Source of the DNA: Escherichia coli
GTDB lineage: Bacteria; Pseudomonadota; Gammaproteobacteria; Enterobacterales; Enterobacteriaceae
NCBI RefSeq assembly: GCF_003334815.1
Contig: NZ_QOWO01000016.1
Length of the DNA stretch: 64,000 bases
Reading direction: 5' to 3' (one strand)
Under the pieces are notes generated by a model. It ran no database searches. It was given only the letters and a program-made list of their open reading frames with translations, and was not told the origin of the DNA. Shown here one piece after another: positions 12,422 to 55,935 of the stretch. Position numbers and translations under genes: made by a program. Positions within the stretch are counted from its first letter, which is position 1; every line of letters begins with the position of its first letter.

Positions 12422-12496
12422 ATGACGTTGTCTCCTTATTTGCAAGAGGTGGCGAAGCGCCGCACTTTTGCCATTATTTCTCACCCCAATAATTAA
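12422..12496 (+). pseudogene. prfC: Orphaned native 5' end of prfC (first 22 codons, then 2 phage-derived codons and a stop)
   Basis: Encodes [24 protein letters not shown], the K-12 RF3 N-terminus as I recall it. It diverges from prfC after ...tctcaccc at 12486. Confidence 0.9.
12473..12486. repeat. attL core
   Basis: attatttctcaccc, identical to 54397-54410. Confidence 0.8.
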
Positions 12497-12716: not shown

Positions 12717-13940
12717 ATGGCGCTGTCTGATGCGTGGTTGCGTTCAGTCGTTGGAAAGGAACGTGATAAGGTTTTGGTTAAATCCGATCGTGATGGTCTG
12801 TCTGTCAGAGTATCACCGAAAGGTCGCGTAGTGTTCCAATATCGTTATCAATGGGCAGGGAAAGGTGAGCGTCTTGATATCGGAACTTACCCGGCAACTG
12901 GATTAAAAGAGGCCAGAGAAGAAGTTATCCGTCTCCGTGGTGAACTTGAGTCAAACCGTAATCCACGATTGGTCAAGCAGGCTGAAAAACGAAAAGCTAC
13001 TGAAGCCATGACGGTAGAGTCTGTGATCCGTGCCTGGTATGAAGCATATTGTGTAAAAAATAAAAAAGGTTCTGAACAGATACTCCGCTCGTTTGAGCTG
13101 CACCTGTTCTCTAAAATCGGGAATATCCCTCACGATGCAGCTACATTGCATGATTGGTTAGAAGTCCTGGAGCCTCTTAGCACTAAGACTCCAGCAATAG
13201 CAGACCGATTGCTAATTAACGCAAAGCAGGCCCATGTCTGGGCGTATAAGAGAAAGCTCATTGAAACTCGCCCGCTGTCGGATATCACGGGTAAAGATAT
13301 GGATATCCGTAAAGGTCAGAAGAAACGGTTTCTGACACATGATGAAATTAAAATCCTTTATGCTGCGATCGATGGTTCTCGAATGGTTCCTAAATACCGG
13401 GCCTTCATTAAGCTATTGCTGCATTTTGGCTGCCGTAGTTCAGAGCTAATTACTGCCAGGGTGGACGATTTTGATTTCATTAATAAGGTATGGACTGTAC
13501 CACCAGAACGACATAAGACTGGAGAGATAACAGGCGAACCGCTAAAGAGGCCCATTATTGAACCGGTGGAGGAGCTTATAAAGAACGCTATCTCTATGAA
13601 CAATGGTTCCGATATGCTTTTTACTAAGGAAGGAAGCAGGGAACCCGTTGGTCGAACATCATTGCAGTCGCTGCCTTACAATTTAATGCAGTACGCATGG
13701 AGGCGTTTGGGGCATCAATTCCCTCATTGGTCTCTTCATGATTTGAGGCGAACAGCACGAACAAACTTTTCTGATCTTACTGCTCCTCATATTGCAGAAA
13801 TAATGCTCGGCCATAAACTGCCAGGGGTTTGGCAGGTTTATGACAAGAGCGATTATCTAGAAGAACAGCGTAAAGCATATCAGGCATGGTGGGAGAGAGT
13901 TGAATCGATCGTTACTTGTACTGGCCCAGAATCTACCTGA
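12717..13940 (+). CDS. int: Tyrosine integrase, P4-type
   Basis: 407 aa. The N-terminal arm-binding domain pattern is (DGLSVRVSPKGRVVFQYRY). Catalytic residues are R (GCRSSEL), H-x-x-R (HDLRRTART) and Y (VYDKSDY). Confidence 0.92.
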   Translation: MALSDAWLRSVVGKERDKVLVKSDRDGLSVRVSPKGRVVFQYRYQWAGKGERLDIGTYPATGLKEAREEVIRLRGELESNRNPRLVKQAEKRKATEAMTVESVIRAWYEAYCVKNKKGSEQILRSFELHLFSKIGNIPHDAATLHDWLEVLEPLSTKTPAIADRLLINAKQAHVWAYKRKLIETRPLSDITGKDMDIRKGQKKRFLTHDEIKILYAAIDGSRMVPKYRAFIKLLLHFGCRSSELITARVDDFDFINKVWTVPPERHKTGEITGEPLKRPIIEPVEELIKNAISMNNGSDMLFTKEGSREPVGRTSLQSLPYNLMQYAWRRLGHQFPHWSLHDLRRTARTNFSDLTAPHIAEIMLGHKLPGVWQVYDKSDYLEEQRKAYQAWWERVESIVTCTGPEST

Positions 13941-14190
13941 CAGCTTGCGTAGCCCTGACAGTCTGTTTTGAGCGAACAGTGGACATTTTCAATGGCATTC
14001 TTGAGTAGGTTACGCTTAGACCAGAAGTAAGAGGTGATAGAATTATCAACAATACATAAAACATAGGGGATCCTTATTGATTTATTGATCTTGACCAACT
14101 TATGTGATGCAGTATGTCTTTAACTTGTATTACTATTATCTTTATCTTGTTGTTTCTAATAAACTTATCTTATTTCAGAAAGGAGTTTTT

Positions 14191-15891
14191 ATGCATTTAG
14201 TCACGAAATCTTATTTCGATGCCTTTTGCAAAGCATTCGCTGCGCCCTATGAGGAGACCAAAAATTTTGAGGCGTTTGTGAACTATTGTGCTTTTTCAAA
14301 ATACTCAGGCGACAAAGTTGAGGTCAGTGATCTTGTGTATGAAGGCCCGGACCCTGGTATTGATGGCGCATTTTTATTTTTAGACGACAGAGCAATTTTT
14401 TCAACTGAAGAACTTCAGGAGATTTTCCAAAACTCACGTCGCGAGTTTCAAGTTTCATTAATATTCACGCAAGCTAAGTCATCGGAGAAGTGGAGCAAAC
14501 AGGAAATAGACTCTTACATTGCGTCAATAAGAGATTATCTTTCACCAGCGCCACAACAACCCCACAGTGAATATCTAGCGGACTTTAAAAAAATGTTCAA
14601 CTTGATATTTGCTAATATCGGCAGAGTCAAAAATGGCCTTCCAGACTTATACGCATATTTTTTTAGTGCTGCACAAAATACAGAGGCCAGAGAAATAAAA
14701 GCTGCATTTGCATCGGGTGAAAAAAGCTTAAAGTCACTCGGGTTTTCACATGAAACATCCTTCATTATGGCTCACAAAGACATGATTCATGAGCTTTGGC
14801 TTGCTGCGGAAGGTCCAATAGAAGCTAAACTTCCTACAATAGGCTATGCTCCATTCCCAGCGGCCCCTAATATTAATAATGCCTATGTAGCTACAGTCAA
14901 AGCTCGTAGTTTTATTGATTCTATACTTAAAGACAAAAATGGAAACCCTCGAAAAAAATTATTCGAAGAAAATGTTAGAGATTTTCTGGGAATTGATGGT
15001 GACGTAAATTCAGAAATTGCAGGAACACTAGATACTGATGGAAAAAAAGCAAGATTTGGTTTAATGAATAATGGAGTGACAATAGTTGCATCAAGCGTGA
15101 GGCCTGCAGGACAAGAAATTTTTATACGAGATTTTCAAATTGTTAATGGATGTCAAACGTCTAATGTTCTTATATCAAAAGACATTCAAGTAGATGAATC
15201 AGTTAGTTTAATGATTAAATTAATTGAAACCGATGAGCCAGCGATCCTTGATGACATTGTACGAGCTACGAATAGACAATCTAAAGTTGAAGATGCACAG
15301 TTCATTTCAACGCTAAAAAAATTAAGGGAATTAGAGCATTATTTTAATGCTAAAGGTGCTATTGAAGGAAATAAAATTTATTTTGAGAGAAGAAAGGGGC
15401 AGTATAGTTCAGAAAGTATAGCTCCAGTACGCATATTTGATATCAGAGAAGTTGCGCGAGCATATGCTGCTATTGTTATGATGAGACCAGATTATTCCAG
15501 TCGTTATCCAAATAGGTTAACTGGTGACTTACTTAATGAGGTTTTCTCTTCCGATGCCCTCGAGGATGATTATTATATATCTTGCTATTGCTTGTATAGG
15601 CTAAAGGCTCTTATCTCAAATAAGAGGTTTGATGGGAAGTATTCAAAATTACGCTGGCATATTCTAACTGCTGCGTCAAAATACTGTGGTAATAATTATA
15701 AGGTTTGGGGGTTCAAAAATAAAAATGAAGCTCTTCATAACTTATTCTCAATGAATGATGGGGAGTGGTTTGAAAAACTTGAGAGTTTAGTAAAAATAGC
15801 TATACCAGATCCGGATATTTCTCGAGACTTACTAAAGTCGCAGCCTTTAACATCAACGATTCTCAAAAGTGTTGATAGCGTACCTAAATAA
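14191..15891 (+). CDS. AIPR-family (abortive infection phage resistance) protein, putative
   Basis: 566 aa from the ATG preceded by aaaggag. The central ..NNGVTIVA..FQIVNGCQTS.. matches my memory of the AIPR family signature. It is very AT-rich relative to the flanks and is followed by the hairpin gggaagc-ttatt-gcttccc. Confidence 0.6.
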   Translation: MHLVTKSYFDAFCKAFAAPYEETKNFEAFVNYCAFSKYSGDKVEVSDLVYEGPDPGIDGAFLFLDDRAIFSTEELQEIFQNSRREFQVSLIFTQAKSSEKWSKQEIDSYIASIRDYLSPAPQQPHSEYLADFKKMFNLIFANIGRVKNGLPDLYAYFFSAAQNTEAREIKAAFASGEKSLKSLGFSHETSFIMAHKDMIHELWLAAEGPIEAKLPTIGYAPFPAAPNINNAYVATVKARSFIDSILKDKNGNPRKKLFEENVRDFLGIDGDVNSEIAGTLDTDGKKARFGLMNNGVTIVASSVRPAGQEIFIRDFQIVNGCQTSNVLISKDIQVDESVSLMIKLIETDEPAILDDIVRATNRQSKVEDAQFISTLKKLRELEHYFNAKGAIEGNKIYFERRKGQYSSESIAPVRIFDIREVARAYAAIVMMRPDYSSRYPNRLTGDLLNEVFSSDALEDDYYISCYCLYRLKALISNKRFDGKYSKLRWHILTAASKYCGNNYKVWGFKNKNEALHNLFSMNDGEWFEKLESLVKIAIPDPDISRDLLKSQPLTSTILKSVDSVPK

Positions 15892-48371: not shown

Positions 48372-48815
48372 ATGAATAAAGTTAAAAGTGTTTACAGCCC
48401 GTCCGAAAATGCAATCTACAACGCAGCGCTATATGAAAGTTATATCAAGGAGGGGACATGGCCGCAGGATGGTATTGAAATCAGCGATGAGGATGCTGTC
48501 AGATTTAATGGGGGAAATAAGCCAACAGGAAAAATGCTGGGAATGGTTTCAGGGACCCTTGCATGGGTTGATGAGCCGCCGCTTTCACCAGAACAGAAAA
48601 TATCAGATGCAGAAAACATGAAAGCCACATTTCGTGCAAAAGCTGACAGTGAAATATCCTGGCGTCAGGATGCTGTTGATGCTGGTATCGCAACTGATGA
48701 AGAAACTTCAACTCTCACCCAATGGAAGAAATACCGTGTGCTGCTGATGCGTGTTGATACTTCAACAGCACCCGATATTGAATGGCCTACGCCTCCGGCA
48801 GTCCAGGCCAGATGA
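48372..48815 (+). CDS. Tail fibre assembly chaperone (Tfa), currently expressed orientation
   Basis: 147 aa with the C-terminus ...YRVLLMRVDTSTAPDIEWPTPP. Confidence 0.8.
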   Translation: MNKVKSVYSPSENAIYNAALYESYIKEGTWPQDGIEISDEDAVRFNGGNKPTGKMLGMVSGTLAWVDEPPLSPEQKISDAENMKATFRAKADSEISWRQDAVDAGIATDEETSTLTQWKKYRVLLMRVDTSTAPDIEWPTPPAVQAR

Positions 48816-49389
48816 CGTCCGGCGCTGTGCTGGTATCTGTTGCCGTCACCGCGTCAATGTAATCCAGCACGGCGTTAAGTCGGGTTGTTTCTGCCGGCGT
48901 CAACTTCCGTCCGGCCTGTAATTTCAACTGAATCAGACTGATGGAAGCCATTGCAGCATCAATCAGATACTGGCGCTGTGCTTCTGCCGCTTCTACTGCG
49001 GCGCTATGCTGTGCCTCAGTATCCGTCACCCATTTCTCACCATCCCATTTATCGTATGGCGTTAATGGGGCGATAGTGGTTGTATTATCAGGGTAATCAC
49101 CCGGAGCTGTGATTTCTTTGGCGTCTCCCGTTTCGGTGCTATAGACAATTTCACCACGATGGTCTGACACATATTCCCATGATTTTAAATCCATAGAACG
49201 GCAGATAGCATAACCCGCCTTATATGTGCCAGGTTCATCCAGACAGGAATATGCAGGGATACCGACACCAATGGCAAGATATTCATTTGAAGTAGAAATA
49301 TATTCCCGAGTTTTACCATCATAGTTATAGACGGTAATATTCCCCGCCTTCGTGGCAATAAGCTCGCTATTTAATACGGCGTTATCCAT
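48787..49389 (-). CDS. Alternative tail fibre assembly chaperone (silent orientation)
   Basis: 200 aa with the C-terminus ...DAVTATDTSTAPDVIWPGLPEA. Confidence 0.8.
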   Translation of the reverse strand: MDNAVLNSELIATKAGNITVYNYDGKTREYISTSNEYLAIGVGIPAYSCLDEPGTYKAGYAICRSMDLKSWEYVSDHRGEIVYSTETGDAKEITAPGDYPDNTTTIAPLTPYDKWDGEKWVTDTEAQHSAAVEAAEAQRQYLIDAAMASISLIQLKLQAGRKLTPAETTRLNAVLDYIDAVTATDTSTAPDVIWPGLPEA

Positions 49390-49868
49390 TATGCAGCCCT
49401 CACGATATAGTTAAATGCAATATTTCGTGGACGGGTTTCACTCCCGCCAGTATTACCGATACTCCCTCGTGAATGAAGTGTCGGTGATGGGATCAGACTC
49501 CCTCCTGTATTTGTGGCATCAAGTCCCCGTCCTTGTGTGTATGTCTTTTTGAAAATCGTAGCCAGTTCCCATTCATCTTTTGTGTCGTAACCATCATTGG
49601 CAACAACAATATGGCGGTGTTTTTCCAGCATCCCTGTCTGAATGCTCAATAAAACACGTCCTGCATCAATACCGCGCCCGTCATCCCAGCCACGAATAAA
49701 CTCACCACGTAAATCAGGCAATTTATTTGTCGGATAAGCCTTTGCCAGTTCCGGGTATTCTTCAGCAGAAAAAGCCGCACCGTTGCATTTCAGCCAGCCT
49801 GTTGGCGGTGTGGCTGAAGGCCATGGAACAGGCACACCAACAGGTAATGCAGAGCCTTCTCCCAAACC
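49389..49868 (-). CDS. Alternative tail-fibre C-terminal cassette (promoterless, collar-domain type)
   Basis: Reads GLGEGSALPVGVPVPWPS...GWLKCNGAAFSAEEYPELAKAY...LPDLRGEFIRGW from the recombination site. It has no start of its own. Confidence 0.75.
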   Translation of the reverse strand, partial: GLGEGSALPVGVPVPWPSATPPTGWLKCNGAAFSAEEYPELAKAYPTNKLPDLRGEFIRGWDDGRGIDAGRVLLSIQTGMLEKHRHIVVANDGYDTKDEWELATIFKKTYTQGRGLDATNTGGSLIPSPTLHSRGSIGNTGGSETRPRNIAFNYIVRAA

Positions 49869-49882
49869 AACGTTTATGAAAA
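49857..49882. repeat. Invertase crossover site, right (inverted relative to the left site)
   Basis: TTCTCCCAAACC-AA-CGTTTATGAAAA. The first 14 nt are identical to the reverse complement of the left site. Confidence 0.75.
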
Positions 49883-49936
49883 TGCAGAAATAACGAGCAA
49901 ATGGCATCATTCCTGCTTTTGTCAGGGAGATCTACT

Positions 49937-50491
49937 ATGCTTATTGGCTATGTACGTGTGTCAACAAATGACCAGAACACAGATCTACAACGTAATGCGC
50001 TGAACTGTGCAGGATGCGAGCTGATTTTTGAAGACAAGATAAGCGGTACAAAGTCCGAAAGGCCGGGACTGAAAAAACTGCTCAGGACATTATCGGCAGG
50101 TGACACTCTGGTTGTCTGGAAGCTGGATCGGCTGGGGCGTAGTATGCGGCATCTGGTCATTCTGGTTGAGGAGTTGCGCGAACGTGGCGTTAATTTTCGC
50201 AGCCTGACGGATGCTATTGATACCAGCACACCGATGGGGCGTTTTTTCTTTCATGTGATGGGTGCCCTGGCTGAAATGGAACGAGAACTGATTGTTGAAC
50301 GAACAAAAGCTGGACTGGAAGCTGCTCGCGCACAGGGACGAATTGGGGGACGTCGTCCCAAACTTACACCAGAACAATGGGCGCAGGCCGGGCGATTAAT
50401 TGCATCAGGCGTTCCTCGCCAGAAGGTGGCGATCATCTATGATGTTGGTGTATCGACACTGTATAAGAAGTTTCCGGTCGGAGATAAATGA
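49937..50491 (+). CDS. pin: Serine DNA invertase (Pin/Gin/Cin/Hin family)
   Basis: 184 aa from MLIGYVRVSTNDQNTDLQRNAL with a C-terminal HTH. Confidence 0.93.
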   Translation: MLIGYVRVSTNDQNTDLQRNALNCAGCELIFEDKISGTKSERPGLKKLLRTLSAGDTLVVWKLDRLGRSMRHLVILVEELRERGVNFRSLTDAIDTSTPMGRFFFHVMGALAEMERELIVERTKAGLEAARAQGRIGGRRPKLTPEQWAQAGRLIASGVPRQKVAIIYDVGVSTLYKKFPVGDK

Positions 50492-50590
50492 AACCGCAGG
50501 CTCGTCGTATGCAAGAAAGTGCTGCGGCTGGCTGGTTAACTTCCGATAGTGAGAGTATTGAATGATTTCCAGTCGTTATCGATTTTACGT
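50489..50590. repeat. Direct repeat copy 1 (~102 bp)
   Basis: tgaaaccgcaggctcgtcgtatgcaag...gattttacgt. By my hand count it differs at about 7 positions from 53774-53875. It contains the hairpin ccgcag..ctgcgg. Confidence 0.85.
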
Positions 50591-50849
50591 ATTTTTTGCA
50601 TGAGATGATTTGAACGCCCTAGCACCAACCGTTCATGATTGCACGCCACTGTCTCTAGAACTGCTATGAGCATGAAGCCGCTGTTCAAACTAAGAATTTA
50701 TATGGCACTAACAGAAAAAATGTTACATATATGTTGAGCTTTAACGCAACATAGACATGTTCTATAGTTTGTGTCTCACCACCAGTTGAAAAAAAACGAA
50801 AATAGATTAACAATGTTCAGAAGAAACCTTCATAATAGAAGAGGTATAA

Positions 50850-51104
50850 ATGGGTAAGATTATTCGGTGGATGCTTTTTTTTGTCGGATTATTTTCCGTT
50901 GCATATTCAATATATAAATATCAACAATCTCCGCAGAGTTTATTTTACATAATCGGTGCTATAGGAACACTTTTATCTGCTACATGTGGTTTACTTGAGA
51001 TAAAAAGCAAGAAATCGAATGGCAGTATAACTGCTGGCGACAACTCAAATATCGTTGTCATTAATGGTTCAGAAAACACATCAAAAATAAAAAATAGAGG
51101 GTGA
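50850..51104 (+). CDS. Small 2-TM membrane protein with a hydrophilic GDNSN-motif tail (unknown function)
   Basis: 84 aa with SD gaggt and two hydrophobic helices. The tail is ...ITAGDNSNIVVINGSENTSKIKNRG. Very AT-rich. Confidence 0.6.
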   Translation: MGKIIRWMLFFVGLFSVAYSIYKYQQSPQSLFYIIGAIGTLLSATCGLLEIKSKKSNGSITAGDNSNIVVINGSENTSKIKNRG

Positions 51105-51106
51105 TT

Positions 51107-52042
51107 ATGTTTGATAAAGAGGTTAACTTAGGAGACAACTCAAACGTAGTAAAAACAGAAGGGAATAACAACACAACAATAATAAATAATTTTGATGAGA
51201 AGTTTATAGGTCACGTTGTAAGATCCATGCTTTATGAAAGTATGCCTTCCTTTCAAGAAGAAGCTAGAAAAAAGATAATTGCGTCAACTGATGAATACAT
51301 TAGAGAGCTAATATCTGAGTTAGTAATTCAAAAAACAGATGCAGATACATTAAACCAAAAACTATCAACGCCTGACGTTCAATACTCTCTTTTTGAATCA
51401 GCTAAATGTTTTGCAAAAAATCCAGAAAGAACAGCAAAATCAACTCTGTTAAATTTAGTTGTAAAAAAAATAAATGAATTGGATGGAGATCATGAAGAGC
51501 TTTCCTCTATCGATCTGGCAATAAACGTCGCTACAAAACTTAGCGTAAAGCAAATAAGGTATATATCTTTAATATACTATATTAAAGATATTGTAAAAAT
51601 ATCACAAGATAGTGCCGGCGCTTATTGCATAATAGATCCTTCAAAAGATACAACAGAAGAAGTTGACGATTTCTTTTTATTCCCAAATGATATAAAAAGG
51701 AACAAGCAGGATGTTTATGATCTTTATATCGATCTATATAACAATCAAATGGATGTTGTATTTAAAGATGAAGAGATTGGCCCAGTTGATTATAGTATGC
51801 TTATAGCATTGGGTTGTATCATTCAACCTGCATTCCCTCAGCGAACATTTGTACAAAATGTAAAGAAAAGAACAGGATTAGATTTAAACGACAGCGAACA
51901 AAAATTAAAGCTATCGACATTCATTGAGAAAATAGAAAAAGCTATAGAGATAGATTCTGTCGATTATATAGTATTAACTACGGTTGGTAGACAAATAGCT
52001 AACGCCTATATATCAACAAGAATGAGATTAGTTAACTTATAA
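51107..52042 (+). CDS. Uncharacterised 311-aa cytoplasmic protein, coupled to the 84-aa ORF
   Basis: ATG at 51107 (or GTG 51101, overlapping the upstream TGA). The N-terminus is ..VNLGDNSNVVKTEGNNNTTIINN. I see no catalytic motif I can recognise. Very AT-rich. Confidence 0.6.
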   Translation: MFDKEVNLGDNSNVVKTEGNNNTTIINNFDEKFIGHVVRSMLYESMPSFQEEARKKIIASTDEYIRELISELVIQKTDADTLNQKLSTPDVQYSLFESAKCFAKNPERTAKSTLLNLVVKKINELDGDHEELSSIDLAINVATKLSVKQIRYISLIYYIKDIVKISQDSAGAYCIIDPSKDTTEEVDDFFLFPNDIKRNKQDVYDLYIDLYNNQMDVVFKDEEIGPVDYSMLIALGCIIQPAFPQRTFVQNVKKRTGLDLNDSEQKLKLSTFIEKIEKAIEIDSVDYIVLTTVGRQIANAYISTRMRLVNL

Positions 52043-52063
52043 ATATCTCATATTTCTTCATCC

Positions 52064-52099
52064 AAGGTGGTGGCTTCATCATCCACCGCCTTCTTTTCT
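52064..52099 (+). terminator. Rho-independent terminator of the two-gene module
   Basis: aaggtggtgg-cttcatcat-ccaccgcctt followed by cttttct. Confidence 0.65.
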
Positions 52100-52103
52100 G
52101 CTC

Positions 52104-52265
52104 TTAAGAGTAGTGAACAAACCACTCGTCAGCAAACTCCCAAGTATCTTTCAGAGTCTCCTGAACAAAAGCCTTAGCAGAATCCTTATCTGCGGTGTAC
52201 GTAACAGGAAAATCATCGCTATGGTAGCTTTGACGCTCACCCCCATACCATAAAATATCAAGAGA
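52104..52265 (-). pseudogene. dinI-like remnant (C-terminal part only, no start codon)
   Basis: The minus frame reads ...[37 protein letters not shown]. About 100 nt are roughly 90 percent identical (hand count) to the 3' end of the intact copy at 53881-54129. Confidence 0.8.
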
Positions 52266-52445
52266 TTACGACTCATTTCCCCATGACTCTTCACCAACCA
52301 ACAGTTCTATCAACATAAGATGTAAACTCATAAACTAAGCAAGATAAAAAAATTAACAGAATTTTGTTGATTTCATGTCTGTGGAGTGTTAACTTAAAAT
52401 GAGACCTGAAGTACTGAAGGTCTTTGACACACTGGAGAAGCAACT

Positions 52446-52805
52446 ATGTTAACGCCGTTTGGTAAGACAGTAAGAAAAATGCGCATAGACTTGGGGCTTA
52501 CGCTTAAAAGCATGGCTGAGGCTATGGGCATGACCTCGTCTTATCTTTCAGCGATCGAAACTGGTAAAAGGGCGGTCACTAAGCCCGTGCTTGATAGCAT
52601 CATTAGCTATTTTAATGCGGATGAAAAACAAAAAGAAAAGCTTATCAGTGCAGCTCGTGACTCTCAGCAGTCAGTAGAGATCAGCTTGTCAGGTAAGAAT
52701 GGCCACGCTCGTGAAGTCGCAATTGCGTTCGCTCGTAGTTTTGATGAATTAAATGAAGAAGACTTCCGTAATTTACGACAGATTTTGAATCGAAAACAGC
52801 AGTAG
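52446..52805 (+). CDS. XRE-family HTH regulator
   Basis: 119 aa with FGKTVRKMRIDLGLTLKSMAEAMGMTSSYLSAIETGKR. The direct repeat ctgaag-ta-ctgaag lies at 52406-52419 upstream. Confidence 0.8.
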   Translation: MLTPFGKTVRKMRIDLGLTLKSMAEAMGMTSSYLSAIETGKRAVTKPVLDSIISYFNADEKQKEKLISAARDSQQSVEISLSGKNGHAREVAIAFARSFDELNEEDFRNLRQILNRKQQ

Positions 52806-52813
52806 GAGGCGGC

Positions 52814-53335
52814 TTGAGCGGACAAGATTATCGTGTACCTCCGCAGAATCGTGAATCAATACGTTCTATCGTCACATCTCTGCGGAGCGCATTTGGTATT
52901 ACTGGGCTTAAATTCCCTGTAATGGAGGTAATTGAGTTCGCATTGCCTCAGTTGATCCCGGATTTTGAGTTCCACATTGGTGGCATGAAAGAAATGGGAG
53001 AAACGCATGGTCTTACGTACCCACAGGAACATTTATTGATTCTGCGCGAAGACATTTACGAAGGCGCTTTGAATGGGGTAGGGCGAGATAGGATGACTGC
53101 CGCGCATGAATTGGGTCATCTTCTTATGCACAGGAACATCGCATTTGCTCGTTCTGCCCCAGGGGTAAAAATCCGCCCTTTTGAGAGTAGTGAATGGCAA
53201 GCTAAATGTTTTAGTGGTGAGTTATTAGTGCCGGCTATGCATGTCAGTATTTTAAAAGGTATGACGGCTGAGGATGTTGCTAAGGCATGCGGAGTTTCAT
53301 TAGTGGCAGCGCGTTATCAGCTAGACAGAATGTAA
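52814..53335 (+). CDS. ImmA/IrrE-family zinc metallopeptidase
   Basis: 173 aa with a TTG start, the HEXXH motif AAHELGHLLMH, and pairing with an upstream XRE gene. Confidence 0.75.
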   Translation: MSGQDYRVPPQNRESIRSIVTSLRSAFGITGLKFPVMEVIEFALPQLIPDFEFHIGGMKEMGETHGLTYPQEHLLILREDIYEGALNGVGRDRMTAAHELGHLLMHRNIAFARSAPGVKIRPFESSEWQAKCFSGELLVPAMHVSILKGMTAEDVAKACGVSLVAARYQLDRM

Positions 53336-53338
53336 AAA

Positions 53339-53373
53339 CCCCTTGCTTGGCGCCAACCAGTGCAAGGGGCTTT
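53339..53373 (+). terminator. Hairpin / putative terminator after the ImmA gene
   Basis: ccccttgc...gcaagggg, an 8-bp stem with a weak T tract. Confidence 0.45.
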
Positions 53374-53492
53374 AGGTGATGAATCCAAGAGGCATCACCA
53401 CCGTGAACAGCTTCGATAGACAGCCTGAAATTAACACCTTCAGGGAAGATGTTCAAGGGAAAAATCTCTCTTGGTAAGGAGGTGTTTTATGA

Positions 53493-53642
53493 ATGGGTTT
53501 GAAATCAATTGCTTCAAAAGCGGCGCCCAAAGGGTTCCGTTGGGTTTTCTGCCGTTACCGCAAGGTGCGTGGGAAATCAAAAAAAGTCCTTGATGCTCAT
53601 GATTACGGGTACGAGGCGTGGGCATTTTTAGTGCGCTGCTAA
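53493..53642 (+). CDS. Unannotated 49-aa basic ORF
   Basis: taaggagg SD, then MGLKSIASKAAPKGFRWVFCRYRKVRGKSKKVLDAHDYGYEAWAFLVRC*, followed by a strong terminator. It is below the ORF-track size cut-off. Confidence 0.5.
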   Translation: MGLKSIASKAAPKGFRWVFCRYRKVRGKSKKVLDAHDYGYEAWAFLVRC

Positions 53643-53655
53643 GGGTTAGTATTTA

Positions 53656-53680
53656 AGGCACCTGCGGGTGCCTTTTTTGT
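53656..53680 (+). terminator. Rho-independent terminator
   Basis: aaggcacc-tgcg-ggtgcctt followed by ttttg. Confidence 0.8.
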
Positions 53681-53773
53681 ATCCTCTGACCCGATTGGTG
53701 TCTTGCTGAGCCTGATAACTACCAATTTTTGTTATTACTATTCTACTATCGCTCAATCATGATTGGCGGGAGT

Positions 53774-53875
53774 TGAAACCGCAGGCACGTCGTATGCAAG
53801 AACGTGCTGCGGCTGGCTGGTGAACTTCCGATAGTGCGAGTATTGAATGATTTCCAGCCGTTACAGATTTTACGT
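53774..53875. repeat. Direct repeat copy 2 (~102 bp), abutting the dinI-like stop codon
   Basis: See 50489-50590. Confidence 0.85.
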
Positions 53876-53880
53876 GCTAA

Positions 53881-54129
53881 TTAGTGAACAAACCACTCGT
53901 CAGCAGACTCCCAGGTATCTTTCAGAGTTTCCTGAACAAAAGTTTTAGCTGAATCTTTATCGGCGGTGCGCGTAACAGAAAGGCCATCGTTGCTGGTGGC
54001 TTTTACGATCACCTCTACATCGTCATAACGCTTACTGATGCGTCGAGTTAATTCTTCCTTTAACGCATCCACAGCACCGTTTGGCATTTTAGTCATTTTC
54101 TCTTTAGCTATGCAGATCTCAATACGCAT
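53881..54129 (-). CDS. dinI: DinI-family SOS-inducible protein
   Basis: 82 aa, [11 protein letters not shown]...[23 protein letters not shown], with LexA boxes in its promoter. Confidence 0.85.
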
Positions 54130-54144
54130 AAAAATCCCTCTACA

Positions 54145-54188
54145 CTGTGTTTGTATACAGTGTTATTTTTAACTGTATAAATAAACAG
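54145..54188. promoter_or_regulatory. Two LexA (SOS) boxes in the dinI-like promoter
   Basis: CTGTGTTTGTATACAG (54145-54160) and CTGTATAAATAAACAG (54173-54188) both fit CTGT-N8-ACAG. The second fills the 17-nt spacer between the minus-strand TTGACA (54190-54195) and TAAAAA. Confidence 0.75.
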
Positions 54189-54213
54189 TGTCAATGGAAC
54201 AAAGATTGCTGCA

Positions 54214-54328
54214 TGTACAAATGTTCTTTGGCTACAAATACACCTACTGATCATGTTCTGCTATGCTCTGATACCTCCAAAATGTACAATCAGCGGCATG
54301 AATTTTTCTTTGTACATATGATTGTACA
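54214..54328. promoter_or_regulatory. Cluster of four TGTACA motifs in the attR arm
   Basis: TGTACA at 54214, 54283, 54311 and 54323, mirroring the cluster at 12651-12707. Confidence 0.4.
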
Positions 54329-54348
54329 TAATTAAAGAGACAACAATT

Positions 54349-55935
54349 ATGACAAGCCTTTTGGCCGCAGAGGTAGCGAAAAGAAGAACCTTTGCAATTA
54401 TTTCTCACCCGGACGCCGGTAAAACTACCATCACCGAGAAGGTGCTGCTGTTCGGACAGGCCATTCAGACCGCCGGTACAGTAAAAGGCCGTGGCTCTAA
54501 CCAGCACGCTAAGTCGGACTGGATGGAGATGGAAAAGCAGCGTGGGATCTCCATTACCACGTCTGTGATGCAGTTTCCGTATCACGACTGCCTGGTTAAC
54601 CTGCTCGACACCCCGGGGCACGAAGACTTCTCGGAAGATACCTATCGTACCCTGACGGCGGTGGACTGCTGCCTGATGGTTATCGACGCTGCAAAAGGTG
54701 TTGAAGATCGTACCCGCAAGCTGATGGAAGTTACCCGTCTGCGCGACACGCCGATCCTCACCTTTATGAACAAACTTGACCGTGATATCCGCGACCCGAT
54801 GGAGCTGCTCGATGAAGTTGAGAACGAGCTGAAAATCGGCTGTGCACCGATCACCTGGCCGATTGGCTGCGGCAAGCTGTTTAAAGGCGTTTACCACCTT
54901 TATAAAGATGAAACCTATCTCTATCAGAGCGGTAAAGGCCACACCATTCAGGAAGTCCGCATTGTTAAAGGGCTGAATAACCCGGATCTCGACGCTGCGG
55001 TTGGTGAAGATCTGGCGCAGCAGCTGCGTGATGAACTGGAGCTGGTGAAAGGCGCGTCTAACGAGTTCGACAAAGAATTGTTCCTTGCGGGCGAAATCAC
55101 TCCGGTATTCTTCGGTACTGCGCTGGGTAACTTCGGCGTTGATCATATGCTGGATGGCCTGGTGGAGTGGGCACCTGCGCCGATGCCGCGTCAGACTGAT
55201 ACCCGTACTGTAGAAGCGAGCGAAGACAAATTTACCGGCTTCGTATTTAAAATTCAGGCCAACATGGACCCGAAACACCGTGACCGCGTGGCGTTTATGC
55301 GCGTGGTATCCGGTAAATATGAAAAAGGCATGAAGCTGCGCCAGGTGCGCACTGCGAAAGATGTGGTGATCTCCGACGCGCTGACCTTTATGGCGGGCGA
55401 CCGTTCGCACGTTGAAGAAGCGTATCCGGGCGATATCCTCGGCCTGCATAACCACGGCACTATTCAGATCGGCGACACCTTTACCCAGGGTGAGATGATG
55501 AAGTTCACTGGTATTCCGAACTTCGCGCCGGAACTGTTCCGTCGTATCCGCCTGAAAGATCCGCTGAAGCAAAAACAGCTGCTCAAAGGGCTGGTACAGC
55601 TTTCCGAAGAGGGCGCGGTGCAGGTGTTCCGTCCGATCTCCAACAACGACCTGATCGTTGGTGCAGTTGGTGTGCTGCAGTTTGATGTGGTGGTATCGCG
55701 CCTGAAGAGCGAATACAACGTTGAAGCAGTGTATGAGTCAGTCAACGTTGCCACTGCCCGCTGGGTAGAATGTGCGGACGCGAAGAAATTCGAAGAGTTC
55801 AAGCGTAAGAACGAAAGCCAACTGGCGCTTGATGGCGGCGATAACCTCGCTTACATCGCTACCAGCATGGTAAACCTGCGCCTGGCGCAGGAACGTTATC
55901 CGGACGTTCAGTTCCACCAGACCCGCGAGCATTAA
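54349..55935 (+). CDS. prfC: Peptide chain release factor 3 (RF3) with a phage-derived N-terminus
   Basis: 528 aa from [27 protein letters not shown].... From [12 protein letters not shown] onward it matches RF3. Codons 1-9 differ from the native [10 protein letters not shown]. Confidence 0.95.
54397..54410. repeat. attR core
   Basis: attatttctcaccc. Confidence 0.8.

Follow-up and report, generated by a model that had tools for sequence, protein, structure and literature searches.

We analyzed a 64,000-nt stretch of Escherichia coli DNA (contig NZ_QOWO01000016.1 of assembly GCF_003334815.1, hereafter the window), which carries a lambdoid prophage of ~42 kb with a Mu-like baseplate, integrated at the 5′ end of prfC. 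The right end of this prophage (50489-54129) is, with a probability of roughly 0.8, an accessory/defense slot anchored by a short noncoding module, here called R, and by a dinI gene, and the prophage is a recombinant produced by homologous recombination at these anchors. By sequence comparison, the window is a chimera of 2 existing ARRANGEMENTS, in which 2 cargo units, cassettes A and B, are stacked on either side of a truncated second copy of dinI. The coordinates of all features are collected in Table 1.

A repeat search of positions 48500-55500 identified 2 copies of R (R1 and R2), 102 nt long and 93% identical with 7 mismatches, and 2 copies of dinI, of which 108 nt (52111-52218 and 53882-53989) were 87% identical; by BLAST, the dinI repeat extends to 52241, with 85% identity over 132 nt. 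Both lie far beyond chance, since all remaining repeats in this interval were 22 nt or shorter. R1 starts at the stop codon of the invertase gene pin, and R2 ends 5 nt short of the dinI stop codon (53881-53883). Of the central dinI copy, only the C-terminal ~31-44 codons are left; it lacks a start codon and is frameshifted by a 1-nt deletion. An earlier note on this DNA had described direct repeats of ~102 bp with ~7 mismatches, a second repeat lying 5 bp from dinI, and a 5′-truncated dinI copy in the middle of the island, and each of these was reproduced. It had also placed ~1.5 kb of AT-rich cargo exactly between the first repeat and the dinI remnant. The composition was borne out, with 29-34% G+C from R1 to the remnant against 46-54% in the flanks, but the border was not; other filled loci remain homologous to the window for 83 nt beyond R1, as far as 50673, a segment we call Rext, and cassette A proper therefore begins at 50674 and ends at 52108. 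Similarly, the layout it proposed, ending in dinI and then attR, had the order right, but attR does not simply adjoin dinI, its core lying inside prfC.

Both halves of the chimera were found in other complete genomes. E. coli E600003 (L001) has the order pin, R, Rext, cassette A, full-length dinI, and prfC, with pin and R+Rext 100% identical to the window and cassette A 99.86% identical. E. coli 510016 (L005) has a different lambdoid prophage at prfC, with lambda-type side fibers and no pin, in which a reverse transcriptase (RT) gene and an IS1-disrupted SLATT gene are followed by the dinI remnant, cassette B, R, dinI, and prfC. Identity to the window was 99.8% for cassette B of this strain, 100% for R2 and dinI, and 99.6% for the att region. 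In a 5-way alignment, the window equals L001 through G52113 and equals the remnant allele of L005 and of a further locus, L006, from A52135. The parents do not differ in the intervening 21 nt (52114-52134, TGAACAAACCACTCGTCAGCA), which make up the longest stretch of perfect identity between the 2 dinI alleles. The proposal of the earlier note that 2 versions had been concatenated by recombination thereby gained identifiable partners, an E600003-like left part and a 510016-like right part, with the crossover in the 21-nt dinI block.

The combination of cassettes A and B was absent from the 5,426 complete E. coli genomes searched, in which the best coverage was 63%, and cassette B was present in 13 of them. 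The junction between the dinI remnant and cassette B was identified in at least 9 genomes with 3 left partners, namely cassette A (the window), RT+SLATT (L005), and a truncated GIY-YIG gene with another R (L006); in L006, cassette B is followed by R+Rext and more cargo in place of R-dinI. Because the same allele and the same junction lie behind 3 different left partners, the alignments indicate that this junction predates the strain.

The content of the interval between R and dinI varied widely. Strain 33-6, phages 2H10 and PhiR63_1, and many Stx1a and Stx2c phages had an empty interval, E600003 had cassette A alone, and 510016 had RT+SLATT. In ATCC 11775, a DUF262 gene separates a truncated pin from R, and AMSCJX04 has a hypothetical gene and a TrlF-type AAA ATPase after R+Rext. 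We scanned IMG/VR for the invariant core of R and obtained at least 120 loci; the counts given here are among the matches listed. R adjoined dinI in 54 of 120 matches and was followed by something else in 57, while 7 ended at a contig edge and 2 contained R twice. Clustering of the downstream DNA resulted in 29 clusters, 15 of which (19 loci) begin with Rext and then continue into unrelated cargo, including a PD-T4-6/Stk2-like kinase, an AriA/NsnB/Old-like ATPase, a RES-domain protein, a DUF4145 protein, an XRE+GNAT pair, a 1,484-aa protein, and cassette A. The remaining clusters include R directly beside att and an integrase of another type, among them lambda's own sib/attP/int, and 1 cluster of 18 loci represents the Qin-type end at ydfJ. 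PADLOC models matched 3 of 10 representative cargo proteins (a raw count), namely the PD-T4-6-like kinase, the AriA/Old-like ATPase, and DRT8, with the DRT8 match sitting beyond a P4-like integrase. Other cargo domains in genomes and viral contigs were RES, DUF4145, SDH-protease, DUF262, and RT+SLATT.

The position is thus fixed and its bounds conserved, with R (with or without Rext) to the left and dinI/att to the right in genomes, phages, and the 120 contigs listed, and its content ranges from empty through cassette A, DUF262, the TrlF ATPase, and RT+SLATT to the 15 clusters after R+Rext. The variability among related prophages that the earlier note predicted was therefore found in genomes, isolated phages, and viral contigs, and content at the locus is not always identical. 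Its description of the repeat-dinI junction as an exchange point of related phages agrees with this variable cargo but does not cover cassette B, whose slot lies to the left of R, and the repeat is not specific to related phages, R being a general module of the right end of lambdoid prophages. The 2 double-R contigs (L058 and L090) read as an independent stacked structure, in which R is followed by a ~25-nt dinI-like stub, a protease (SDH/ClpP-like, 334 aa, minus strand), a second R cut to its first 60 nt, dinI, and the integrase. In several loci (L121, L070, L118, and L006), R+Rext and its cargo precede a P4-type integrase (+ strand) and further defense genes, DRT8 in the case of L121, an arrangement suggestive of tandem integration of satellites or islands at the prophage's right end.

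R was identified in 5,408 of the 5,426 complete genomes, at ~17,560 places with a median of 3 per genome, and contiguous R-dinI was found in 1,579 genomes. Its left edge falls on the same nucleotide whatever the neighbor (pin, tfa, cassette B, or the GIY-YIG fragment), and on the right it runs either into dinI or into Rext. The K-12 prophage Qin has a full R (L133 3473-3568, 83% identity) with a dinI-like stub of ~20 nt and then ydfJ behind it, and Rac has the hairpin part of R only (L134 6730-6769); both copies are unannotated. An Rfam search at E ≤ 1 over 47-56 kb gave no match on R and 2 weak small RNA matches beside R2, and the R core sequence had no match in the searchable literature, the coverage of which is incomplete. 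In phage 2H10, the virion genome order is invertase, hypothetical gene, R, dinI, attP, and int, which places R-dinI at the att-proximal end of the right arm of the phage.

On the dinI-sense strand, the last ~35 nt of R form a G+C-rich hairpin followed by a tail that ranges from UUUCA to UUUUU, with UUUUU in many copies and UUUCA in both copies of the window. A hairpin of at least 6 bp was obtained in 81 of 81 unique R copies folded one by one, with a median free energy (dG) of -17.7 kcal/mol, and compensated stem variants were observed (CCGCAG/CUGCGG, UCGUAG/CUACGG, and AACAGCG/CGCUGUU), along with 1 variant with a wholly different inner stem. The best-conserved part of R is the 55 nt upstream of the hairpin; the viral sample was selected on 22 bases of the R core, so that invariance there is partly by construction, and the core was likewise invariant in 10 copies derived by BLAST. 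The gene at 53881-54129 has both the Pfam DinI match and the predicted SOS boxes expected of the DinI family. The LexA box has the consensus CTGT-N8-ACAG, and 2 matches overlap the predicted TTGACA/-10 promoter, for which the promoter scan matched 10 of 12 positions, which makes SOS induction of dinI, with leftward transcription into R, very probable. We infer that R is the 3′ flank and putative terminator of the leftward att-proximal unit (dinI, or int where there is no dinI), which would insulate the late and tail genes.

Two other readings of R were rejected. A minus-strand open reading frame through R and Rext (50536-50688) was discarded because its stop in R1 results from a single substitution (GTTAAC against GTTCAC) and its length is not conserved. 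A role as integrase arm site or sib-like retroregulator was discarded as well, because R is separated from the att core by more than 500 nt, including dinI, and occurs with several integrase types. In the lambda-type contig L050, R lies just outside the true sib/tI hairpin.

Cassette A encodes a membrane protein and a member of the Vpar_1526/LPO_1073 family, which is rare (17 clusters in 5.8 billion proteins), and a literature search under these 2 family names returned nothing specific. The promoter-like sites at 50741-50836 are consensus matches only. The same gene pair was found in a P2-like prophage of Providencia, where it separates the portal gene from gpA at the tin/old hotspot position, and in P4-like satellites of Atlantibacter and Citrobacter. 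In the lambdoid, P2-like, and P4-like backbones, the DNA block ends the same within 1 nt, at 86-89% nucleotide identity, running from ~175 nt upstream of the first ATG through 16 nt past the terminator and ending in CTTAAG, while the flanks in the 3 backbones revealed no shared homology and no target duplication. Given its presence in 3 known or candidate defense hotspots, which is guilt by association, an anti-phage or exclusion role of cassette A is likely. The AlphaFold model of the 311-aa protein is confident (predicted local distance difference test score 82, predicted template modeling score 0.76). The 84-aa protein at its C-terminus (ITAGDNSNIVVINGSENT) and the 311-aa protein at its N-terminus (NLGDNSNVVKTEGNNNT) have a GDNSN-rich motif in common, which in the latter falls within residues 1-27, the part that is disordered in the model; it may be an interaction tag.

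Cassette B was found as a unit in 2 further contexts, with identical ends each time and at 89% identity: in L007 and L008 it lies alone, flanked by attL at yejO and by the integrase of another lambdoid prophage, and in phage Phi06_2987 S (L011) it lies beside a pin-like gene. The trio of XRE repressor, ImmA peptidase, and 49-aa protein also recurs as a unit, at varied positions, in Klebsiella, Aeromonas, and Pseudoalteromonas, on prophages as well as satellites. When E. coli and Pseudoalteromonas are compared, identity is 76% for the 49-aa protein and ~50% for the peptidase; across genera, the identity of the 49-aa protein is 76-92%, above that of ImmA and XRE (window 53493-53642; L145 5679-5828; L147 5706-5855). 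This stronger conservation points to the 49-aa protein as the constrained payload. The peptidase aligns only to positions 56-147 of the 242-position capP profile, the C-terminal GAF domain is absent from its 173 aa, and the unit is self-contained, traveling alone in prophages and satellites rather than with a CapH/CapP-type defense operon. With neither GAF domain nor attached defense operon, the architecture of cassette B is closer to ImmR/ImmA, a helix-turn-helix (HTH) repressor with a small single-domain M78 peptidase on a mobile element, as judged from the predicted domains. With low confidence, cassette B could be a stress- or infection-triggered derepression switch that releases a small protein.

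The slot is bounded by R, a noncoding module of ~100 nt with a hairpin of the Rho-independent terminator type, and by the SOS-regulated dinI next to attP, and cargo would come in self-contained units that bring a promoter and a terminator of their own. Because R and dinI are 85-95% identical among many otherwise unrelated lambdoid phages, co-resident or superinfecting phages could swap the content between or beside these anchors by homologous recombination. The backbone of the window (pin, R, Rext, and cassette A) would come from an E600003-like phage and the terminal block (dinI remnant, cassette B, R, dinI, and attR) from a 510016-like prophage at the same prfC site, and the join would have formed in the longest perfect stretch (21 nt) common to both dinI alleles. 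The simplest route would begin with tandem lysogeny at prfC, after which the DNA between the incoming dinI and the resident remnant, acting as direct repeats, would be deleted; since prfC is the integration site of both parents, this is the most economical option. The same structure would also result from a double crossover in which the second exchange fell in the int/attL region that the two have in common. The older junction between remnant and cassette B would stem from a single nonallelic or illegitimate event and would since have been inherited as a block. Relaxed homologous recombination between an incoming phage and a resident prophage over short, diverged homology is established (De Paepe 2014, as cited in PMC13492144).

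Several observations weigh against this account. The recombination route is read from end products only, and an identity block of 21 nt is barely long enough for RecA-type recombination. Homologous recombination is also not the whole story of how cargo first entered, since the ends of cassette A are identical while its flanks are unshared. For R, RNAalifold on the 81 copies did not recover the terminator hairpin because indels defeated the alignment fold, which leaves the per-sequence folds as the evidence, and 3 or more U within 5 nt past the stem defined by minimum free energy were present in 26 of 81 copies, a count blurred by spurious outer pairs. As to the defense role, no PADLOC model matched the proteins of cassette A, and a structure search of the Protein Data Bank with the model of the 311-aa protein found no informative neighbor.

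The same duplicates might also be relics of prophage decay, with tandem prophages at prfC reduced by deletions that left an older right end (cassette B, R, and dinI) and no dedicated exchange point. Remnants with only R, or with R and ~20 nt of dinI, do exist in K-12 Rac and Qin, and since in L007 and L008 a different lambdoid phage has cassette B between its attL and its integrase, a tandem arrangement would put it just to the right of an R-dinI-att junction. Decay overlaps with the route favored above for the last step and is possible for the origin of the remnant-B junction. However, no att or int remnant is present in the 34 nt between the dinI remnant and cassette B, 2 separate deletions with clean breakpoints at the cassette edges would be needed, and the same block of remnant, cassette B, and R lies behind 3 left partners. 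Moreover, many alternative R-dinI cargos are found in intact, inducible phages, so the variability is not confined to decaying prophages. We therefore hold decay as the full explanation to be unlikely, although not negligibly so. An assembly artifact, either a chimeric join or a false duplication at the repeat, would account for the absence of the A+B combination from complete genomes, and the only junction unique to the window does lie in a 21-nt repeat. The earlier note had named such an artifact as a danger to its interpretation, but the copies of R differ at 7 of 102 positions and those of dinI by ~15%, which is unlike a duplicated read pile; all other junctions are attested independently in complete genomes, and with 1 prfC locus per genome, to which both parental structures map, there is no second locus to misjoin. 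This explanation is highly improbable.

Cargo could instead have entered by a dedicated, end-specific insertion, through a recombinase, an integron-like system, or possibly Pin, with R/Rext as docking site and the repeats as by-products. The constant ends of cassette A in 3 backbones without shared flanks, those of cassette B in 2 further contexts, the razor-sharp boundaries of R whatever its neighbor, and the serine recombinase gene adjoining R1 would all fit. Yet neither terminal repeats, inverted or direct, nor a target-site duplication were seen at the cassette ends, and apart from CTTAAG at the right of cassette A the ends had no motif in common; they coincide with promoter and terminator, as expected of units trimmed by selection. 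Pin-mediated insertion in particular was rejected, because a scan of the window at ≤3 mismatches found a single pix-like crossover site, upstream of pin (49860-49881), and many phages with R have no pin. Insertion of this kind we consider very doubtful. A broader version, in which a dedicated end-specific mechanism delivers the same promoter-to-terminator unit to lambdoid, P2-like, and P4-like hotspots and R/Rext serves as a docking or insulating element or as an RNA derived from a 3′ untranslated region, is hardly less of a long shot. Exchange at the R and dinI anchors remains the reading we prefer.

Table 1. Features of the prophage and its right-end slot in the 64,000-nt window (dG in kcal/mol where a unit is given; z, z-score)
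Feature	Position	Strand	Basis and remarks
attL core ATTATTTCTCACCC	12473-12486	+	Original prfC 5′ end to the left; 3-way alignment of attL, attR, and 2H10 attP; BLAST against 2H10
Integrase gene	12717-13940		Pfam Phage_integrase
pin-type serine invertase gene (PinE-like)	49937-50491	+	Pfam Resolvase 8.7e-52 and HTH_7; final gene of the conserved late/tail region
R copy 1 (R1), left anchor of slot	50489-50590	-	Conserved module of ~100 nt; hairpin degenerate; dG -17 kcal/mol, z 0.26
Rext, conserved R extension, 83 nt	50591-50673		Seen only at filled loci; common to 15 unrelated cargo types
Cassette A, autonomous unit	50674-52108	+	Promoter region, 2 genes, terminator; right end CTTAAG; G+C ~30%
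Cassette A block in 3 backbones	Window 50674/5-52108; L135 5566-7002; L136 5566-7003		Same ends
Membrane protein, 84 aa	50850-51104	+	Cassette A
Vpar_1526/LPO_1073-family protein, 311 aa	51107-52042	+	NCBIfam NF045477 3.3e-24; PF28206 on homologues
Cassette A terminator	52064-52092	+	dG -15.3, z -4.6
dinI remnant, 3′ part only	52104-52241	-	Frameshifted, no start codon; crossover within 52114-52134
Cassette B, autonomous unit	52276-53677	+	XRE, ImmA/M78, 49-aa gene, terminator; same ends elsewhere
XRE repressor	52446-52805	+	Pfam HTH_3/HTH_31; PADLOC capH 3.6e-10
ImmA/M78 HEXXH peptidase, 173 aa	52814-53335	+	Pfam Peptidase_M78; PADLOC capP 4.9e-11; HELGH motif
Conserved basic protein, 49 aa	53493-53642	+	phrog_33859 1.5e-26
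Cassette B terminator	53655-53680	+	dG -16.3, z -4.1
R copy 2 (R2), 3′ flank of dinI	53774-53875	-	Intact hairpin, then UUUCA on dinI-sense strand; dG -31 kcal/mol, z -2.5
Intact dinI-like gene, 82 aa, right anchor	53881-54129	-	Pfam DinI PF06183 1.2e-19; 100% identical to strain 510016
dinI promoter region	54143-54194	-	LexA-box matches CTGT-N8-ACAG at 54145-54160 and 54173-54188; -35 TTGACA/-10 pair
attR core ATTATTTCTCACCC, within prfC	54397-54410	+	Alignment with attL and phage 2H10 attP

Alignment of both prophage ends with 2H10 attP placed the att core ATTATTTCTCACCC inside codons 17-21 of prfC. The phage provides a substitute promoter and the first ~16 codons (prfC ATG at 54349), and the native 5′ end is displaced to the attL side; prfC is a documented prophage integration site in E. 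coli. Prophage genes include a CI-like S24 repressor, CII, a Mu-type baseplate (gp47 and YmfQ), an invertible tail-fiber segment, and pin, which has 92-100% nucleotide identity to pinE of e14 and to that of E600003. The tail-fiber/tfa segment (48753-49875) is inverted relative to E600003 (L001 1123-2245) at 90.7% identity, which is consistent with an active Pin-invertible host-range segment with its right crossover site at 49860-49881. Within the tail-fiber-assembly coding region, a subthreshold Rfam match to IS009 was found at 48577-48766 (+), spanning the whole model with 48 bits against a gathering score of 117 (E = 8.9e-9). At the attL end, a gene directly after the integrase (14104-15891, +) encodes an abortive-infection phage resistance (AIPR) protein of 595 aa (Pfam E = 1e-43), and its position is a second accessory/defense slot at the opposite end of the prophage. 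In the right-end slot, 2 filler segments, 52242-52275 (remnant to cassette B) and 53678-53773 (cassette B terminator to R2), belong to neither cassette nor anchor and are shared only with loci of the 510016/IPCEC31 type.

Compared with known systems, the window locus is a well-defined example of the phage moron/defense hotspot type and not a new type of element. Like the hotspots of P2 and P4 (Rousset 2022; Moura de Sousa 2026, PMC13586616), it has a fixed position, conserved bounds, and rapidly swapped cargo, which in those hotspots is mostly anti-phage. Near-identical cores with different cargo and chimeric or stacked loci are common to both, and cassette A itself is present in a P2 hotspot at the tin/old position and in a P4-like satellite. 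However, the backbone of the window is lambdoid with a Mu-like baseplate, and the anchors are R/Rext and dinI instead of core genes of P2 or P4. Defense genes are reported to be almost never common to P2 and P4 (PMC13586616), whereas we identified cassette A in both P2-like and P4-like elements.

The lambdoid morons (the Hendrix/Juhala concept, with HK97 gp15 and lambda lom and bor as examples) are alike in that cassettes A and B are autonomous units between conserved phage genes, each with its own terminator and predicted promoter, and cassette A, at ~30% G+C, deviates in base composition (29-34%), although cassette B does not (40-48%). The difference is that the slot of the window is reused by many alternatives, 2 of them stacked with duplicated anchors, and the classic concept implies no reusable slot defined by anchors. 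The K-12 element e14 has a homologous tail and baseplate region and pinE (88-97% nucleotide identity) and has the McrA restriction gene right after pin and before attR, but it has no R, Rext, or dinI, its homology ends at the pin stop codon, and it integrates in icd and not in prfC. Cassette B resembles CapH/CapP, ImmR/ImmA, and DdrO/IrrE in its XRE-type HTH protein followed by a HEXXH M78 peptidase, with PADLOC matches to capH and capP. The C-terminal GAF domain that defines CapP and IrrE (10.1101/2022.04.27.489752) is absent from the 173-aa peptidase, however, and the only partner gene in cassette B is that of the 49-aa protein. The integrative and conjugative elements (ICEs) of the SXT/R391 family supply a replacement 5′ end to prfC. 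They share with the prophage an integration site in the 5′ end of this gene (given as prfC in PMC2786100) and differ as ICEs of Vibrio and Providencia with an unrelated integrase context, the element in the window being an E. coli lambdoid phage.

A lambdoid slot anchored by R and dinI was not described in the literature searched, the coverage of which is incomplete, and no equally well-defined anchor-based slot was found there for lambdoid prophages, the most abundant in E. coli. Because the R/Rext and dinI/att anchors are short, nearly universal, and sharp-edged, the cargo of the slot could be harvested mechanically from thousands of genomes, with 2 immediate candidates in the pair of membrane protein and Vpar_1526-family protein and in the XRE-ImmA-49-aa trio. 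Two points deserve follow-up, the ubiquitous but unannotated R and the identical ends of cassette A in 3 unrelated backbones, the latter bearing on how defense cassettes move, a question left unresolved by PMC13586616. The window itself provides a clean natural example of the stacking of 2 cargos, with the crossover mapped to 21 nt.

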